A program made the position numbers and the translations under genes. DNA of 64,000 nucleotides, taken from Escherichia coli. GTDB lineage: Bacteria > Pseudomonadota > Gammaproteobacteria > Enterobacterales > Enterobacteriaceae. The DNA lies in assembly GCF_003334335.1 (NCBI RefSeq), contig NZ_QOWQ01000004.1, one strand, 5' to 3'. Position 1 is the stretch's first letter, and every line of letters starts with the position of its first letter. Shown one piece after another: positions 706-57,449 of the stretch. A model generated the notes under the pieces. That model searched no databases and was not told the DNA's origin. It saw only the letters and a list, made by a program, of their open reading frames with translations.

Positions 706-778
706 GTGAGGCACTCGGTTATGAATTACCGCGATGCTACAATGTGGCGCGAAGAATGTTAACCCTCTGGAGCGTTTT

Positions 779-3208
779 GTGTCGTCGTTGCCCGTTGCTG
801 CCGTCTTACCTGAATTACTTACCGCTCTCGATTGTGCGCCGCAGGTATTATTAAGTGCGCCGACCGGGGCCGGGAAATCAACCTGGCTGCCGCTGCAACT
901 GCTGGCGCATCCCGGCATTAACGGGAAAATTATCCTGCTGGAGCCGCGTCGTCTGGCGGCGCGTAACGTCGCGCAACGGCTGGCGGAGCTGCTTAACGAA
1001 AAGCCAGGCGATACCGTTGGCTACCGGATGCGTGCGCAAAACTGCGTCGGGCCGAATACCCGCCTGGAAGTGGTTACCGAAGGCGTGCTGACGCGCATGA
1101 TCCAGCGTGACCCGGAACTGAGCGGTGTTGGACTGGTGATCCTTGATGAATTTCATGAGCGCAGCTTGCAGGCGGATTTGGCGTTGGCGCTGTTACTCGA
1201 TGTGCAACAAGGTCTGCGTGATGACCTTAAACTGCTGATTATGTCGGCTACCCTGGACAACGACCGCTTGCAGCAAATGCTGCCAGAAGCGCCTGTCGTC
1301 ATCTCAGAAGGGCGCTCGTTTCCGGTTGAACGCCGTTATTTACCGCTGCCCGCGCATCAGCGTTTTGACGATGCCGTTGCGGTAGCCACCGCTGAAATGC
1401 TGCGTCAGGAAAGCGGATCATTACTGTTATTTTTACCTGGCGTCGGAGAAATTCAGCGTGTGCAGGAACAACTGGCTTCGCGCATCGGCAGTGATGTATT
1501 GCTCTGCCCGCTGTATGGCGCGTTGTCGCTGAACGATCAGCGAAAAGCGATCCTCCCGGCACCGCAAGGGATGCGCAAAGTGGTGCTGGCGACCAATATT
1601 GCTGAAACCAGTTTAACCATTGAAGGTATTCGTCTGGTGGTGGATTGTGCCCAGGAGCGTGTGGCGCGTTTTGATCCGCGCACGGGGCTTACGCGACTGA
1701 TTACTCAACGCGTTAGCCAGGCATCCATGACGCAGCGTGCCGGGCGCGCCGGGCGTCTGGAGCCGGGTATCAGCCTGCATTTAATCGCCAAAGAACAAGC
1801 AGAACGCGCCGCGGCGCAAAGTGAACCGGAGATCTTACAAAGCGATCTTTCTGGTTTGCTGATGGAATTACTGCAATGGGGATGCAGCGATCCGGCGCAG
1901 ATGAGCTGGCTGGATCAACCGCCAGTAGTGAATCTACTGGCCGCGAAACGTCTGTTACAAATGCTGGGGGCACTGGAGGGTGAACGGCTTAGTGCGCAAG
2001 GGCAAAAAATGGCAGCGCTGGGTAACGATCCGCGTTTAGCGGCAATGCTGGTTAGCGCGAAGAACGACGACGAAGCTGCTACCGCGGCAAAAATTGCCGC
2101 CATTCTCGAAGAGCCGCCACGGATGGGCAATAGTGACCTGGGCGTGGCGTTTTCGCGCAATCAACCAGCCTGGCAGCAACGTAGTCAGCAACTGTTAAAA
2201 CGCTTAAACGTACGTGGCGGTGAGGCAGACAGTTCGCTTATCGCGCCGCTACTTGCCGGGGCGTTTGCCGATCGCATTGCTCGTCGCCGTGGGCAAGATG
2301 GACGCTATCAACTGGCAAACGGCATGGGAGCGATGCTCGATGCCAACGACGCGCTAAGCCGCCACGAATGGTTGATCGCACCGTTATTATTGCAGGGCAG
2401 CGCCTCGCCGGATGCGCGGATTTTACTGGCGCTGCTGGTCGATATTGATGAGTTAGTACAACGCTGCCCGCAGCTGGTACAGCAGTCTGACACTGTGGAG
2501 TGGGATGACGCGCAAGGTACGCTGAAAGCCTGGCGTCGGCTACAAATCGGTCAGTTGACGGTGAAAGTGCAGCCGCTGGCGAAACCGTCAGAAGACGAGT
2601 TGCATCAGGCGATGCTTAATGGCATCCGTGATAAAGGTTTAAGCGTGCTCAACTGGACGGCGGAAGCGGAACAGCTACGCTTGCGTTTGTTATGCGCCGC
2701 AAAGTGGTTGCCGGAATATGACTGGCCAGCGGTTGATGATGAAAGTTTATTGGCAGCGCTGGAAACGTGGCTGCTGCCACATATGACTGGCGTACATTCA
2801 CTACGCGGCCTGAAATCACTCGACATTTATCAGGCACTACGCGGATTACTTGATTGGGGAATGCAGCAACGTCTGGATAGTGAATTGCCTGCGCATTACA
2901 CTGTGCCGACGGGAAGCCGGATCGCCATTCGTTATCATGAAGATAACCCGCCCGCGCTGGCGGTGAGAATGCAAGAGATGTTTGGCGAGGCCACCAATCC
3001 GACGATCGCCCAGGGGCGCGTGCCGCTGGTGCTGGAGTTGCTTTCACCTGCCCAAAGGCCATTACAAATCACACGAGATTTGAGCGCCTTCTGGAAAGGA
3101 GCGTACCGTGAGGTGCAAAAAGAGATGAAAGGGCGTTATCCCAAACATGTCTGGCCGGACGACCCGGCAAATACTGCACCGACGCGACGGACGAAAAAGT
3201 ATTCGTAA
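779..3208 (+). CDS. hrpB: ATP-dependent RNA helicase HrpB (DEAH-box)
   Basis: ORF 734..3208; Walker A GAGKST, DEFH box, SAT motif; start set at in-frame GTG 779 to give the expected 809 aa. Confidence 0.9.
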   Translation: MSSLPVAAVLPELLTALDCAPQVLLSAPTGAGKSTWLPLQLLAHPGINGKIILLEPRRLAARNVAQRLAELLNEKPGDTVGYRMRAQNCVGPNTRLEVVTEGVLTRMIQRDPELSGVGLVILDEFHERSLQADLALALLLDVQQGLRDDLKLLIMSATLDNDRLQQMLPEAPVVISEGRSFPVERRYLPLPAHQRFDDAVAVATAEMLRQESGSLLLFLPGVGEIQRVQEQLASRIGSDVLLCPLYGALSLNDQRKAILPAPQGMRKVVLATNIAETSLTIEGIRLVVDCAQERVARFDPRTGLTRLITQRVSQASMTQRAGRAGRLEPGISLHLIAKEQAERAAAQSEPEILQSDLSGLLMELLQWGCSDPAQMSWLDQPPVVNLLAAKRLLQMLGALEGERLSAQGQKMAALGNDPRLAAMLVSAKNDDEAATAAKIAAILEEPPRMGNSDLGVAFSRNQPAWQQRSQQLLKRLNVRGGEADSSLIAPLLAGAFADRIARRRGQDGRYQLANGMGAMLDANDALSRHEWLIAPLLLQGSASPDARILLALLVDIDELVQRCPQLVQQSDTVEWDDAQGTLKAWRRLQIGQLTVKVQPLAKPSEDELHQAMLNGIRDKGLSVLNWTAEAEQLRLRLLCAAKWLPEYDWPAVDDESLLAALETWLLPHMTGVHSLRGLKSLDIYQALRGLLDWGMQQRLDSELPAHYTVPTGSRIAIRYHEDNPPALAVRMQEMFGEATNPTIAQGRVPLVLELLSPAQRPLQITRDLSAFWKGAYREVQKEMKGRYPKHVWPDDPANTAPTRRTKKYS

Positions 3209-3216
3209 GGTTGGTT

Positions 3217-3310
3217 TTCTCCCTCTCCCTGTGGGAGAGGGCCGGGGTGAGGGCATCAGCGCGCACGTTCACCCTCACCCTAACCCTCTCCCTCAAGGGA
3301 GAGGGGACCG
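3217..3310. repeat. GC-rich imperfect-palindromic intergenic repeat (BoxC-like) between hrpB and mrcB
   Basis: Two inverted copies of ctccctctccctgtgggagaggg..gggtgaggg; family name is from memory and uncertain. Confidence 0.55.
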
Positions 3311-3403
3311 ATCGAGCACAAATTTTGAGAGATATCTTCTTCTGTCTTGTAACAGAAGAACAGAAAATCGGGCTTTTGCGCCTGAATATTGCGGAGAAAA
3401 AGC

Positions 3404-5938
3404 ATGGCCGGGAATGACCGCGAGCCAATTGGACGCAAAGGGAAACCGACGCGTCCGGTCAAACAAAAGGTAAGCCGTCGTCGTTACGAAGATGACGATG
3501 ATTACGACGATTATGATGACTATGAGGATGAAGAACCGATGCCGCGCAAAGGTAAGGGCAAAGGCAAAGGGCGTAAGCCTCGTGGCAAACGCGGCTGGCT
3601 ATGGCTACTGCTAAAACTGGCTATCGTTTTTGCCGTGCTGATCGCCATTTACGGCGTTTATCTCGATCAAAAAATTCGTAGCCGTATTGATGGCAAGGTC
3701 TGGCAACTGCCTGCGGCAGTTTATGGCCGAATGGTCAATCTTGAGCCAGACATGACCATCAGCAAGAACGAGATGGTGAAGCTGCTGGAGGCGACCCAGT
3801 ATCGTCAGGTGTCGAAAATGACCCGTCCTGGCGAATTTACCGTGCAGGCCAACAGCATTGAGATGATTCGCCGTCCGTTTGATTTCCCGGACAGTAAAGA
3901 AGGACAGGTGCGCGCGCGTCTGACCTTTGATGGCGATCATCTGGCGACGATCGTCAATATGGAGAACAACCGTCAGTTCGGTTTCTTCCGTCTTGATCCG
4001 CGTCTGATCACCATGATCTCTTCGCCAAACGGTGAGCAGCGTCTGTTTGTGCCGCGCAGTGGTTTCCCGGATTTGCTGGTGGATACTTTGCTGGCGACAG
4101 AAGACCGTCATTTTTACGAGCATGATGGAATCAGTCTCTACTCAATCGGACGTGCGGTGCTGGCAAACCTGACCGCCGGACGCACGGTACAGGGTGCGAG
4201 TACGCTGACGCAACAGCTGGTGAAAAACCTGTTCCTCTCCAGCGAGCGTTCTTACTGGCGTAAAGCGAACGAAGCTTACATGGCGCTGATCATGGACGCG
4301 CGTTACAGCAAAGACCGTATTCTTGAGCTGTATATGAACGAGGTGTATCTCGGTCAGAGCGGCGACAACGAAATCCGCGGCTTCCCGCTGGCAAGCTTGT
4401 ATTACTTTGGTCGCCCGGTAGAAGAGCTAAGCCTCGACCAGCAGGCGCTGTTAGTCGGTATGGTGAAAGGGGCGTCCATCTACAACCCGTGGCGTAACCC
4501 AAAACTGGCGCTGGAGCGACGTAATCTGGTGCTGCGTCTGCTGCAACAGCAACAGATTATTGATCAAGAACTCTATGACATGTTGAGTGCCCGTCCGCTG
4601 GGGGTTCAGCCGCGCGGTGGGGTGATCTCTCCTCAGCCAGCCTTTATGCAACTGGTGCGTCAGGAGCTGCAGGCAAAACTGGGCGATAAGGTAAAAGATC
4701 TCTCCGGCGTGAAGATCTTCACTACCTTTGACTCGGTGGCCCAGGACGCGGCAGAAAAAGCCGCCGTGGAAGGCATTCCGGCACTGAAGAAACAGCGTAA
4801 GTTGAGCGATCTTGAAACTGCGATTGTGGTCGTCGACCGCTTTAGTGGTGAAGTTCGTGCGATGGTCGGAGGTTCTGAGCCGCAGTTTGCGGGCTACAAC
4901 CGTGCGATGCAGGCGCGTCGTTCGATTGGTTCCCTTGCAAAACCAGCGACTTATCTGACGGCCTTAAGCCAGCCGAAAATCTATCGTCTGAATACGTGGA
5001 TTGCGGATGCGCCAATTGCGCTGCGTCAGCCGAATGGCCAGGTCTGGTCACCGCAGAATGATGACCGTCGTTATAGCGAAAGCGGCAGAGTGATGCTGGT
5101 GGATGCGTTGACCCGTTCGATGAACGTGCCGACGGTAAATCTGGGGATGGCGCTGGGGCTGCCTGCGGTTACGGAGACCTGGATTAAACTGGGCGTACCG
5201 AAAGATCAGTTGCATCCGGTTCCGGCAATGCTGCTGGGGGCGTTGAACTTAACGCCAATCGAAGTGGCGCAGGCATTCCAGACCATCGCCAGCGGTGGTA
5301 ACCGTGCACCGCTTTCTGCGCTGCGTTCGGTAATCGCGGAAGATGGCAAAGTGCTGTATCAGAGCTTCCCGCAGGCGGAACGCGCTGTTCCGGCGCAGGC
5401 GGCGTATCTGACACTATGGACCATGCAGCAGGTGGTACAACGCGGTACGGGTCGTCAGCTTGGGGCGAAATACCCGAACCTGCATCTGGCAGGGAAAACA
5501 GGGACTACCAACAATAACGTAGATACCTGGTTTGCGGGCATTGACGGCAGCACGGTGACCATCACCTGGGTCGGCCGTGATAACAACCAGCCGACCAAAC
5601 TGTATGGTGCCAGCGGGGCAATGTCGATTTATCAGCGTTATCTGGCTAACCAGACGCCAACGCCGCTGAATCTTGTTCCGCCAGAAGATATTGCAGATAT
5701 GGGCGTGGACTACGACGGCAACTTTGTTTGCAGCGGTGGCATGCGTATCTTGCCGGTCTGGACCAGCGATCCGCAATCGCTGTGCCAGCAGAGCGAGATG
5801 CAGCAGCAGCCGTCAGGCAATCCGTTTGATCAGTCTTCTCAGCCGCAGCAACAGCCGCAACAGCAACCTGCTCAGCAAGAGCAGAAAGACAGCGACGGTG
5901 TAGCCGGTTGGATCAAGGATATGTTTGGTAGTAATTAA
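3404..5938 (+). CDS. mrcB: Penicillin-binding protein 1B (bifunctional glycosyltransferase/transpeptidase)
   Basis: ORF 3389..5938; start at ATG 3404 ([14 protein letters not shown]...) gives 844 aa; acidic D/Y-rich N-terminus, TM helix, transpeptidase motifs, Q-rich C-terminus. Confidence 0.95.
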
Positions 5939-6091
5939 CATCTAAGCGTGAAATACCGGATGGCGAGTTGCCATCCGGTAAAATAACATCCCATCTAAGA
6001 TATTAACCCTTTCTTTTCATCTGGTTGTTTATTAACCCTTCAGGAACGCTCAGATTGCGTACCGCTTGCGAACCCGCCAGCGTTTCGAATA

Positions 6092-15638: not shown

Positions 15639-15665
15639 ATGTGCCGGATAAACTATCCGGCACAT
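15639..15665. terminator. Bidirectional stem-loop terminator between convergent erpA and yadS
   Basis: atgtgccggata-aac-tatccggcacat, a perfect 12-bp stem. Confidence 0.65.
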
Positions 15666-20990: not shown

Positions 20991-21018
20991 AACCCCTTCC
21001 TGAAAACGGGAAGGGGTT
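20991..21018 (+). terminator. Rho-independent terminator after degP
   Basis: aaccccttcc-tgaaaacg-ggaaggggtt stem followed by ctcctt. Confidence 0.7.
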
Positions 21019-42022: not shown

Positions 42023-43170
42023 TGACTGAACAGCGTCCATTAACGATTGCCCTGGTCGCCGGAGAAACCTCCGGCGATATCCTGGGGGCCGGTTTAATCC
42101 GCGCTCTGAAAGAACATGTGCCCAACGCCCGCTTTGTTGGTGTTGCCGGGCCACGAATGCAGGCTGAAGGCTGCGAAGCCTGGTACGAAATGGAAGAACT
42201 GGCGGTGATGGGCATTGTTGAAGTACTCGGTCGTCTGCGTCGCTTACTGCATATTCGTGCCGATCTGACAAAGCGTTTTGGCGAACTGAAGCCAGATGTT
42301 TTTGTTGGTATTGATGCGCCTGACTTCAATATTACTCTTGAAGGTAACCTCAAAAAGCAGGGTATCAAAACCATTCATTACGTCAGTCCGTCAGTCTGGG
42401 CGTGGCGACAGAAACGTGTTTTCAAAATAGGCAGAGCCACCGATCTGGTGCTCGCATTTCTGCCTTTCGAAAAAGCGTTTTATGACAAATACAACGTACC
42501 GTGCCGCTTTATCGGTCATACCATGGCTGATGCCATGCCATTAGATCCAGATAAAAATGCCGCCCGTGATGTGCTGGGGATCCCTCACGATGCCCACTGC
42601 CTGGCGTTGCTACCGGGGAGCCGTGGTGCAGAAGTTGAAATGCTTAGTGCCGATTTCCTGAAAACGGCCCAGCTTTTGCGCCAGACATATCCGGATCTCG
42701 AAATCGTGGTGCCACTGGTGAATGCCAAACGCCGCGAGCAGTTTGAACGCATCAAAGCTGAAGTCGCGCCAGACCTTTCAGTTCATTTGCTGGATGGGAT
42801 GGGCCGTGAGGCGATGGTCGCCAGCGATGCGGCGCTACTGGCGTCGGGTACGGCAGCCCTGGAGTGTATGCTGGCGAAATGCCCGATGGTGGTGGGATAT
42901 CGCATGAAGCCTTTTACCTTCTGGTTGGCGAAGCGGCTGGTGAAAACTGATTATGTCTCGCTGCCAAATCTGCTGGCGGGCAGAGAGTTAGTCAAAGAAT
43001 TATTGCAGGAAGAGTGTGAGCCGCAAAAACTGGCTGCGGCGCTGTTACCGCTGTTGGCGAACGGGAAAACCAGCCACGCGATGCACGATACCTTCCGTGA
43101 ACTGCATCAGCAGATCCGCTGCAATGCCGATGAGCAGGCGGCACAAGCCGTTCTGGAGTTAGCACAATGA
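42022..43170 (+). CDS. lpxB: Lipid-A-disaccharide synthase
   Basis: 382-aa ORF; ATG overlaps the lpxA stop by 1 nt. Confidence 0.95.
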
Positions 43171-55730: not shown

Positions 55731-57449
55731 TCAGCCTTTAATCTGTTTCACCAGATATTCGACGATGTCACCAGTCTTAATTAACTGTTTCTCGCCGTTG
55801 CGACGATATTTATATTCGATATCGTCGTTGTCGAGGTTACGGTCGCCCAGCACAATAGTGTGCGGAATACCGATCAGTTCCATATCAGCAAACATCACGC
55901 CCGGACGCTCTTTGCGGTCATCCAGCAGCACTTCGATACCTTGTGCACGCAGTTCGCTGTACAGTTTCTCAGCAAGCTCTTGTACGCGGAAGGATTTGTG
56001 CATGTTCATCGGCAGAATCGCCACCTGGAACGGCGCGATAGCGTCAGGCCATACGATGCCTCGTTCGTCGTAGTTCTGCTCAATCGCCGCAGCTACCACA
56101 CGCGTTACCCCGATACCGTAGCAACCCATCGTCAGGATTTGGTTACGGCCATCTTCACCCTGTACGGAGGCTTTCAGTGCTTCGGAGTACTTGGTACCCA
56201 GCTGGAAGATGTGACCAACTTCGATACCACGTTTGATCAGCAGCGTACCCTGGCCATCCGGGCTTGGATCGCCAGCCACCACGTTACGGATATCTGCAAC
56301 TTCCGGGGTAGCGACATCGCGATCCCAGTTGATGCCGAAGTAGTGTTTACCATCGATGTTAGCACCAGCAGCGAAATCACTCATCGCCGCAACGGTACGG
56401 TCAATCACCACCGGAATCGGCATGTTTACCGGACCCAGTGAACCCGGACCGGCTTTAACCACGGCACGAATTTCTTCTTCGGTCGCGAAAGTCAGCGGGC
56501 TTGCAACCTGCGGCAGTTTTTCTGCTTTAACTTCGTTCAGCTCGTGATCACCGCGCACCAGCAGCGCAACCAGCGGGAAGCTGCTGCCTTCAACCGCTTT
56601 AACCAGCAGAGTCTTAACCGTTTTCTCAATCGGCAGATTGAACTGTTCAACCAGTTCCGCGATGGTTTTCGCGTTCGGCGTATCAACCAGCGTCATTTCC
56701 TGGGTAGCAGCAGCGCGCGGTTCTTTCGGCGCGATAGCTTCTGCCAGTTCAATGTTCGCTGCATAGTCAGAGGTGTCGGAGAAGACCACATCGTCTTCAC
56801 CGCTCTGCGCCAGCACCTGGAATTCGTGAGAGGCGCTGCCGCCGATAGAACCGGTGTCGGCTTGTACGGCGCGGAAATCCAGCCCCATGCGGCTGAAGAT
56901 TTTGCTGTAGGCCGCATACATTGCATCGTAGGTTTCCTGCAGGGATTCCTGAGAAGTATGGAAAGAGTAAGCATCTTTCATCAGGAATTCGCGGGAACGC
57001 ATGACGCCGAAACGCGGACGCACTTCGTCGCGGAACTTGGTCTGGATCTGATAGAAGTTCAGCGGCAGCTGTTTGTAAGAGCTAAGCTCGTTACGAATCA
57101 GGTCAGTGATAACTTCTTCATGAGTTGGGCCGAGTACGAACGGACGCTCGCCACGGTCAACAAAACGCAGCAGTTCCGGACCGTACTGTTCCCAACGACC
57201 ACTCTCTTGCCACAAATCGGCTGGCTGAACCACCGGCATCGACACCTCGATCGCACCGGCGTTGTTCATCTCTTCACGCACGATGTTTTCGACTTTTTTC
57301 AGAACGCGCACGCCGGTCGGCAGCCAGGTATATAACCCGGAGGCCAGCTTGCGGATCATCCCGGCGCGCAGCATCAGCTGATGGCTGATCACCTCGGCGT
57401 CGGCAGGTGTCTCCTTGAGAGTGGAGAGCAGGTATTGGCTAGTACGCAT
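55731..57449 (-). CDS. proS: Proline--tRNA ligase
   Basis: ORF 55731..57503 trimmed to ATG 57449 ([20 protein letters not shown]...), 572 aa. Confidence 0.95.

Follow-up and report, generated by a model that had tools for sequence, protein, structure and literature searches.

The short, GC-rich repeat BoxC is non-coding and is dispersed through the intergenic regions of enterobacterial genomes. The RNA of REP, another multi-copy intergenic repeat, forms 3' stem-loops that can block exonucleases and so set the 3' ends of mRNAs.

BoxC has accumulated several names. The 23 TMECO triplex motifs that Holder et al. 2015 (PMC4666352) catalogue in MG1655 lie at 18 sites, and these authors note that the TMECO motif was originally known as BoxC and subsequently as PIT (potential intrastrand triplex). 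The family is defined by blocks of 9 nt: CCCTCTCCC, a loop of 3-4 nt, GGGAGAGGG, a 3-nt loop (TTA in type A, CCG in type B) and GGGTGAGGG. A type A and a type B unit form an inverted pair at five MG1655 sites, motifs no. 1 and no. 2 among them (Holder et al. 2015, PMC4666352); Table 1 of the same paper gives no. 1 as CCCTCTCCCTGTGGGAGAGGGCCGGGGTGAGGGC (164547-164580, sense, type B) and no. 2 as CCCTCTCCCTTGAGGGAGAGGGTTAGGGTGAGGGT (164631-164597, antisense, type A). Kaplan et al. 2016 list both units, between hrpB and mrcB, as the putative G-quadruplex-hairpin elements HPGQ no. 5 and no. 6, with midpoints at 164569 and 164608. Holder et al. 2015 (PMC4666352) also describe the 'genomic instability' and 'palindrome effect' of these repeats.

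Here we analyse the spacer between hrpB and mrcB in a 64-kb stretch of E. coli DNA (the window). We consider it very probable that this spacer houses two unrelated, adjoining elements: a dispensable BoxC pair and a conserved RNA stem-loop in the mrcB leader.

Results

A published BoxC pair between hrpB and mrcB

The upstream gene, hrpB, occupies positions 734-3208 of the window on the + strand, with its TAA stop codon at 3206-3208 (ORF list, RefSeq annotation; K-12 b0148, 162105-164534). Downstream, also on the + strand, mrcB, which encodes PBP1B, runs from its ATG at 3404 to 5938 (K-12 b0149, 164730-167264). This leaves a spacer of 195 bp at 3209-3403, equivalent to 164535-164729 in K-12 MG1655, whose coordinates are obtained from those of the window by adding 161326. 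With 801 nt from around the site as query, a match was obtained in each of the 5,426 complete E. coli genomes, in many cases at 100% identity, and the genes annotated beneath it were hrpB and mrcB. The part next to mrcB (3313-3404) is found in 5,425 of the 5,426 genomes, as a strictly single-copy sequence.

The GC-rich part of the spacer is repetitive. A repeat search recovered two perfect 9-bp hairpins of CCCTCTCCC and GGGAGAGGG, at 3221-3229/3233-3241 and 3284-3293/3296-3305, confirming an earlier reading made from the sequence alone, which had noticed two inverted copies of a motif across 3217-3310. The block GGGTGAGGG is found at 3245-3253 on the + strand and at 3272-3280 on the - strand and nowhere else in the 64-kb window, while the arms 3227-3253 and 3272-3298, each of 27 nt, are 81% complementary. 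Taken together, the two CCCTCTCCC/GGGAGAGGG hairpins and the inverted GGGTGAGGG blocks amount to one long imperfect palindrome, and the full hairpin pattern was matched in none of 100 shuffles.

Both units follow the three-block definition of the family. Unit 1 lies on the + strand at 3221-3254 (34 nt) and reads CCCTCTCCC-TGT-GGGAGAGGG-CCG-GGGTGAGGGC, with the loops TGT and CCG; a regular expression recovers it, and it is TMECO no. 1, type B, in the sense orientation at K-12 164547-164580. Unit 2 lies on the - strand at 3271-3305 (35 nt) and reads CCCTCTCCC-TTGA-GGGAGAGGG-TTA-GGGTGAGGGT, with the loops TTGA and TTA; it is TMECO no. 2, type A, antisense at K-12 164631-164597, and also HPGQ no. 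6. Between the inverted units sits a central spacer, ATCAGCGCGCACGTTC, which was read from the sequence at 3255-3270 and has no strand of its own. Sequence and K-12 coordinates of both units coincide exactly with the published TMECO table.

By all sequence criteria and by the published listing, then, we regard the identification of the GC-rich palindrome as BoxC/PIT/TMECO/HPGQ as settled. Its identity at hrpB-mrcB is already published, and we claim no novelty for it; the locus is a textbook case of a repeat that is known but enigmatic. The suggestion that the element is a BoxC-like dispersed repeat is thus borne out twice over, by the exact match to published coordinates and by its abundance across genomes, where BLAST finds a median of 9-17 places. 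The lower of these medians was obtained with the K-12-type pair as a 101-nt query (maximum 24 places per E. coli genome), the higher with an inverted pair of the type found in strain E69 (maximum 29), and with either query the places are almost all chromosomal. Among the ten records listed, the match at hrpB-mrcB overlaps no annotated feature.

Alleles of the BoxC pair

The mrcB upstream region was retrieved from 80 Enterobacteriaceae species. In E. albertii, E. whittamii and one further Escherichia species the spacer measures 93 bp and the BoxC block is missing. Variation is also found within E. coli, where a 361-nt query spanning the locus reached a coverage of at least 80% in only 3,536 of the 5,426 genomes. 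Forty records were sampled across the ranking, and of those among them that fell below 80% coverage all but one gave two pieces spanning 257-259 bp, corresponding to a spacer about 102 bp shorter. BoxC is missing at this site in about a third of E. coli, ST131 being an example.

Several alleles can be told apart. The K-12-type allele, carried by this window, has a B(+)/A(-) pair in a spacer of 195 bp, and the empty allele of ST131 has a spacer of 93 bp and no BoxC. In O111 a deletion of 64 bp between the two GGGAGAGGG blocks leaves a single hairpin (the collapsed allele), and in O145 12 bp have been deleted within the second unit. The inverted allele of E69 and 504239 has the opposite orientation (A+/B-) and different flanks; ATCAGCGCGCACGTTC is present in the E69-type allele as its reverse complement. 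The missing, mutated and collapsed alleles at hrpB-mrcB match the strain variability that has been published as a trait of the family.

Of the 80 species, 32 carry BoxC blocks in this same spacer; the unit is complete in 20 of them, and nine have at least two units. In many species the distance from the end of BoxC to the conserved TTGAGAGA is 8-12 nt. Either the spacer is a recurrent target of BoxC, or an old insertion has been lost many times. At this locus BoxC represents an insertion into an ancestral spacer of 93 bp and is both dispensable and unstable; in the collapsed allele a deletion between its own repeats has reduced the pair to one hairpin. What the present analysis adds to the published record is local: the catalogue of alleles in 5,426 genomes, the finding that BoxC recurs at this position in 32 of 80 species, and an RNA 3' end at the foot of the hairpin (see below). 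The series of empty, paired, inverted and collapsed alleles amounts to a compact natural experiment on how a repeat originates and decays.

A covarying stem-loop upstream of mrcB

Between the BoxC pair and mrcB lies a second inverted repeat, here called hairpin 1 (TTCTTCTGT / CTTGTA / ACAGAAGAA; + strand), which the repeat search places with its arms at 3337-3345 and 3352-3360. The repeat is perfect over 9 bp, has a loop of six nucleotides, is single-copy and folds as RNA with -10.1 kcal/mol. The sequence-only reading had noted a perfect 9-bp repeat about 40 nt before mrcB and put it at 3338-3361; the repeat is real and ends 43 nt 5' of the ATG, and its coordinates, 3337-3360, lie one base further upstream.

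How much weight should be given to such a repeat? Dinucleotide-shuffled windows contain 1.7 +/- 1.2 perfect 9-bp repeats with a loop of 3-10 nt, and the real window contains 14 matches, corresponding to 8 hairpins. As some 1.7 such repeats are expected per shuffled window, a lone 9-bp repeat proves nothing by itself. We accept hairpin 1 as real because it is conserved and covaries across species, and not on account of repeat counts.

The comparison rests on an alignment (A1) of the region from -88 to +12 of mrcB in the window and 80 Enterobacteriaceae species, 81 sequences in total. RNAalifold predicts hairpin 1 from this alignment, along with a second hairpin at 3368-3385. Across the 81 sequences, 94% of the cells in the 9-pair stem of hairpin 1 are paired, and five of the nine pairs have changed on both sides. 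Double changes of this kind number 87 cells, compared with 29 +/- 6 in shuffles, and none of 500 shuffles reaches 87. When the 3' partner is slid by one to three columns, pairing falls to 52-64% of cells. The changes are concentrated away from the base of the stem: each of the four distal pairs has changed on both sides in 11-31 sequences with pairing kept, and the species between them show six or more Watson-Crick forms of the distal stem, among them CTGT/ACAG, CTGC/GCAG, CCTC/GAGG, TCAC/GTGA, TCTC/GAGA-type and CGGC/GCCG. The loop varies freely (CTTGTA, CGCCTG, TGAACA, AGGCCT and others), whereas the proximal half, TTCTTC/GAAGAA, is conserved in sequence as well as in pairing. Read on the + strand, the wobble pairs of hairpin 1 comprise 67 G·U against 8 A·C.

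Keeping in mind that the 80 species are related, so that the shuffle controls overstate significance, we regard the slid-partner control and the strand bias as the sounder evidence. Compensatory changes and a bias towards G·U on the + strand point to selection on RNA and not on protein-binding DNA. We therefore read the small repeat as a stem-loop that is conserved in the RNA of the mrcB 5' leader. On this reading, selection would keep base pairing in the + strand RNA of the leader, and hairpin 1 may act post-transcriptionally, through mRNA stability, processing or the binding of a factor.

Hairpin 1 is one part of a longer conserved block, which in A1 starts sharply at TTGAGAGAT and continues to the mrcB ATG. 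This 5' boundary (3325-3333, + strand) is invariant in the 81 sequences, save that its last T is conserved in at least 90%. Hairpin 1 is followed by a single-stranded linker, GAAAATC (3363-3369, + strand), found as GA(R)AATC in all species of A1, and then by hairpin 2 (TCGGGC / TTTTGC / GCCTGA; 3368-3385, + strand), which is conserved and displays little covariation. At its pair 57-77, 43 sequences have A-U and 29 have G·U, and its wobble pairs on the + strand comprise 31 G·U against 0 A·C. The Shine-Dalgarno sequence of mrcB, GGAG at 3393-3396 on the + strand, was identified from the sequence and falls in a conserved GCGGAGA block. RNA structure alone does not explain why TTGAGAGAT is invariant or why TTCTTC/GAAGAA is conserved in sequence.

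To which of the two genes does the block belong? In K. pneumoniae MGH 78578, hrpB (172018-174447) and mrcB (191543-194107) are 17 kb apart, and at the K. pneumoniae ATCC 13883 locus the conserved block is still found directly upstream of mrcB. Since the block has stayed next to mrcB with hrpB 17 kb away, the hairpin belongs to mrcB and not to the end of hrpB. The published transcription start of mrcB in K-12, at 164235 on the + strand (window 2909), lies inside hrpB, 495 nt before the ATG (Kim et al. 2012); the 51-nt promoter sequence listed in that study is identical to window 2859-2909. For K. pneumoniae the same low-depth study places the mrcB start 296 nt before the ATG. With starts at -495 in E. 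coli and -296 in K. pneumoniae, both from one low-depth study, the block would fall inside the mrcB 5' leader. The sequence-only reading had proposed mapping transcript starts around 3300-3400; among the starts listed by Kim et al. 2012 at low depth, the one for mrcB is at 2909 and none falls in the spacer, that interval included.

It is conceivable, and we put it forward tentatively as something we would not yet bet on, that the 80-nt block at 3325-3403 is a cis-regulatory RNA leader that controls the production of PBP1B, the major peptidoglycan synthase, in Enterobacteriaceae. Such a leader would comprise the invariant UUGAGAGAU, the covarying hairpin 1, GA(R)AAUC, hairpin 2 and the Shine-Dalgarno sequence. 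If the proposal is true, the invariant single-stranded blocks could dock a protein, a small RNA or an RNase, and BoxC, by inserting repeatedly at the 5' edge of the block, would change the synthesis or processing of the leader in some lineages. The literature searched describes no mrcB leader element, no regulator of the site and no small-RNA control of mrcB. An Rfam scan of 2800-3800 at E <= 10 returned nothing on 3316-3404; its only matches were sub-threshold chance microRNA matches on the BoxC palindrome.

Two more specific arrangements were considered and set aside. A long-range partner for the invariant UUGAGAGAU was sought within 3337-3800; the best duplex (-9.7 kcal/mol) comes without conservation support, and RNAalifold pairs none. 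Alternate sequestration of the Shine-Dalgarno sequence GGAGAA by the left arm UUCUUC would involve only six pairs, is weaker than hairpin 1 and, as the columns are invariant, amounts to speculation.

The covarying mrcB leader is the one mildly new point of this analysis, a modest lead and not a discovery. PBP1B is an important cell-wall synthase and an antibiotic target, and the leader offers a testable handle on its post-transcriptional control.

Promoter and operator readings of the leader

Could the same block be read as DNA? The small repeat might be the mrcB core promoter or operator, with TTGAGA (3325-3330) as the -35 element, TGTAAC (3348-3353) as the -10 element and a regulator dimer sitting on TTCTTC...GAAGAA. 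There is some published support for this: the constitutive RpoD promoters of Shimada et al. 2014 include TTGAGA-17-TGTAAC, assigned to the hrpB>mrcB spacer, and a gSELEX peak at 164658 (window 3332) marks the binding of RNA polymerase holoenzyme in vitro. In addition, TTGAGA and the proximal half-arms TTCTTC/GAAGAA are invariant or nearly so.

However, the proposed -10 element falls in the loop of the hairpin, its least conserved part, and lacks the final T. RpoH, RpoF and RpoE holoenzymes also give the gSELEX peak at 164658, and a single peak common to four sigma factors implies binding that is not sigma-specific. A sigma-70 scan of 2700-3600 found no promoter, and no start inside the spacer figures among those listed, at low depth, by Kim et al. 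2012. With its -10 in a variable loop and its gSELEX peak common to four sigma factors, TTGAGA-17-TGTAAC was rejected as a conserved promoter.

The operator half of the idea, which the sequence-only reading had also raised, fares no better. Were a dyad kept as a protein-binding site, its sequence should be conserved and any changes uncompensated. Here the distal pairs covary, the arms changing with pairing kept, and the wobble pairs are biased 67:8 towards G·U on the + strand; a DNA-binding model leaves both the compensatory changes and the strand bias unexplained. The proximal TTCTTC/GAAGAA, being conserved in sequence, may still act as a half-site. Overall, we judge a core promoter or operator at the repeat unlikely and prefer the RNA stem-loop. 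A LexA box built from CTGT...ACAG was likewise rejected: its spacing is CTG-N8-CAG, and the established LexA consensus spacing is CTG-N10-CAG.

The BoxC hairpin in RNA

The whole palindromic BoxC pair, together with short flanking pairing (3210-3312, + strand), makes one long RNA hairpin. The ~100-nt RNA of 3209-3312 folds with -70.9 kcal/mol (z -7.1) on the + strand and -67.4 kcal/mol (z -6.7) on the - strand; the fold as DNA is predicted at -33.7 kcal/mol. The stem is not followed by a U-tract, and a terminator scan of 2700-3600 on the + strand returned no match there. A published Term-seq RNA 3' end at K-12 164636 (window 3310, + strand) falls at the foot of this hairpin (Adams et al. 2021, supplementary files 1 and 3). 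The end was seen in M63-glucose only, one of three growth conditions, with a mean read count of 987; it is classed as 'orphan' and lies at -94 from mrcB (Adams et al. 2021). The Rho-termination table of the same study has no coordinate within 164620-164679.

One scenario that might account for this end is that BoxC, in K-12-type strains, would be transcribed together with hrpB or the mrcB leader, and that the ~100-nt RNA hairpin would then form a barrier at which some transcripts end or to which they are trimmed back. Such a barrier, REP-like in its action, would supply hrpB with a defined 3' end. We infer this role and hold it conditionally, because the 3' end is weak, was detected in one condition and is classed as 'orphan', and because PIT elements had neither promoter nor terminator activity in earlier tests, as related by Holder et al. 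2015 (PMC4666352). A third of E. coli lack BoxC and yet have an unaltered mrcB leader, so that mrcB expression cannot depend on the element.

A more ambitious possibility is that the BoxC pair is a structural switch which, by adopting triplex, G-quadruplex, hairpin or cruciform folds, regulates the expression of mrcB or hrpB, or replication. Isolated oligonucleotides of the family do form triplex and G-quadruplex in vitro (published work including Holder et al. 2015 and Kaplan et al. 2016). BoxC would also lie in the mrcB leader, a 3' end maps to its foot, and RNA polymerase holoenzymes bind nearby in vitro. Several observations argue against a switch. First, sister species and roughly one in three E. 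coli lack BoxC, with no change in mrcB or its leader. Second, in vivo DMS footprinting showed no triplex, and the family is unlinked to gene class or gene distance (Holder et al. 2015, PMC4666352). The inactivity of PIT elements as promoters or terminators, cited above, points the same way. We therefore regard a regulatory switch as quite improbable.

Termination and coding potential

The small repeat follows hrpB on the same strand, and in BoxC-less spacers it starts only ~25 nt past the hrpB stop, so that one might take it for a transcription terminator of hrpB or a hairpin protecting the hrpB 3' end. The terminator had been one of two functions suggested from the sequence alone, and the evidence speaks against it. 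The stem is A/U-rich, with G-C in three of its nine pairs, and is followed by CAGAAAATC and not by a U-tract. The + strand scan of 2700-3600 gives no match. The Term-seq data of Adams et al. 2021, from three conditions, list no end near 164686, the sole end in the spacer being 164636; the earlier proposal that transcript ends be mapped around both structures thus finds one at the foot of BoxC (3310) and none listed at the 9-bp repeat. Finally, the conserved block adjoins mrcB in K. pneumoniae even though hrpB is 17 kb distant. A role in ending hrpB transcripts is, in our view, very improbable for hairpin 1, and the mrcB leader stem-loop remains the preferred reading.

Coding potential is still less credible. 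Two frames come into question: an ORF of 68 codons at 3211-3417, which crosses BoxC, the hairpins and the first mrcB codons and is annotated as D8B36_18480 in one MG1655 assembly, and a 30-codon uORF that starts at TTG 3325 and ends in a TGA overlapping the mrcB start. Although a published report treats D8B36_18480 as conserved and found that a plasmid copy lowered curli expression, and although 57 of 81 sequences keep the 30-codon frame open, we reject both as small proteins: the first 38 codons of the longer frame are BoxC and its flank and are missing from ST131 and E. albertii, neither TTG has a Shine-Dalgarno sequence 5' of it, the 30-codon frame has in-frame stops at codons 7-12 in nine species, length changes are not multiples of three in 15 species, and substitutions track base pairing and not codon position. 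For any multi-copy effect of the D8B36_18480 plasmid, the leader or the repeat, as DNA or RNA, is the likelier source, and the locus would be better annotated as BoxC than as a 68-codon 'hypothetical protein'.

Comparison with known systems

How does the spacer compare with systems that are already understood? Like both of its hairpins, an intrinsic (Rho-independent) terminator is a coding-strand stem-loop that follows a gene. In contrast to such a terminator, the BoxC hairpin and hairpin 1 both lack a U-tract, and both fail the terminator scan.

Stem-loops of the ompA type in 5'-UTRs, which stabilise enterobacterial mRNAs, are the nearest counterpart of the mrcB leader. In either case there is a simple leader stem-loop upstream of the ribosome-binding site that is kept by compensatory changes. 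The mrcB hairpin differs in having no sequence relation to ompA and no Rfam family, and because the mapped mrcB start is 495 nt upstream, it is not known to stand at the 5' end of the mRNA.

REP/BIME elements, for their part, share with BoxC that they are short, GC-rich, palindromic, intergenic and multi-copy. Their sequence is unrelated, BoxC having no REP core of the GCCGGATG type, and the three-block architecture of BoxC, unlike REP/BIME, also permits triplex or G-quadruplex folds. We know of no RAYT-type transposase for BoxC. The closest correspondence is with the published BoxC/PIT/TMECO/HPGQ family itself: with no difference in sequence, the block order, the loop types, the inverted pairing of an A and a B unit and the intergenic position of the hrpB-mrcB pair all match.

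Conserved elements of the mrcB leader

Upstream of mrcB, conservation has a sharp 5' boundary at TTGAGAGAT (3325-3333). This block and a second one, GA(R)AATC (3363-3369), are invariant or nearly so across 81 sequences (the window and the upstream regions of 80 Enterobacteriaceae species) and are predicted to be single-stranded; neither is explained by a partner sequence, a promoter fit or a known motif. The second leader hairpin (TCGGGC/GCCTGA, 3368-3385), which ends 7 nt before the Shine-Dalgarno sequence, is likewise conserved. At the third pair, 43 species have A-U and 29, E. coli among them, have G·U; 9, mostly Enterobacter, have a U·U mismatch.

BoxC elements in the hrpB-mrcB spacer

BoxC blocks are found in the same spacer in 32 of the 80 species, where they usually end 8-12 nt 5' of TTGAGAGA, and there may be as many as four complete units, as in Pseudocitrobacter faecalis and an Enterobacteriaceae isolate. 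Either the spacer is a hot spot for BoxC insertion, or an ancient insertion has been lost repeatedly.

The flanks of the element can be compared with an empty site. On its left, the K-12-type element is flanked (3209-3220) by GGTTGGTTTTC, whose reverse complement, GAAAACCAACC, is nearly identical to GAAAACCAAACC, with which the empty E. albertii spacer begins. Enterobacter BoxC units and those of E69-type E. coli also have GGGAGAGGGAGAAAAC as their right end. Either BoxC termini would extend beyond the 34-36 nt triplex motif, or a footprint would have been left at empty sites. The orientation of the element also flips among E. coli alleles.

A 68-codon ORF with a TTG start (3211-3417, + strand), named D8B36_18480 in one MG1655 assembly annotation, covers the BoxC pair, the two leader hairpins and the start of mrcB. 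A plasmid copy of this ORF is reported to inhibit curli expression and adhesion (PMC10869245). Because BoxC sequence, missing from ST131 and E. albertii, makes up the first half of the ORF, this gene call is very probably spurious, and the source of the plasmid effect may be the DNA or RNA of the region.

Transcription start and polymerase binding

The published TSS assigned to mrcB (K-12 164235, window 2909, + strand) lies within hrpB, so that the mrcB leader would be 495 nt long and take in the 3' end of hrpB together with the BoxC pair. The sequence upstream of this TSS (2859-2909, + strand) contains TGGATA-17-TACACT, which a consensus promoter scan did not flag. In Genomic SELEX, RNA polymerase holoenzymes with RpoH, RpoF and RpoE share one peak position at about 3332 (K-12 164658), and an RpoD site is likewise listed for the spacer. 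Since the same few sites come back in all three tables (RpoH, RpoF and RpoE), the data suggest that holoenzyme binding at about 3332 is sigma-independent; its target is perhaps unusual DNA adjoining BoxC.

Other inverted repeats in the window

Perfect inverted repeats of at least 9 bp also occur at 20991-21018, 42056-42077 and 55801-55827. Another, TACCGGATGGC...GCCATCCGGTA (5954-5980), starts 16 nt past the mrcB stop and is probably the mrcB terminator or a REP-like hairpin; the repeat at 15639-15665 has a REP-like core, GCCGGAT.
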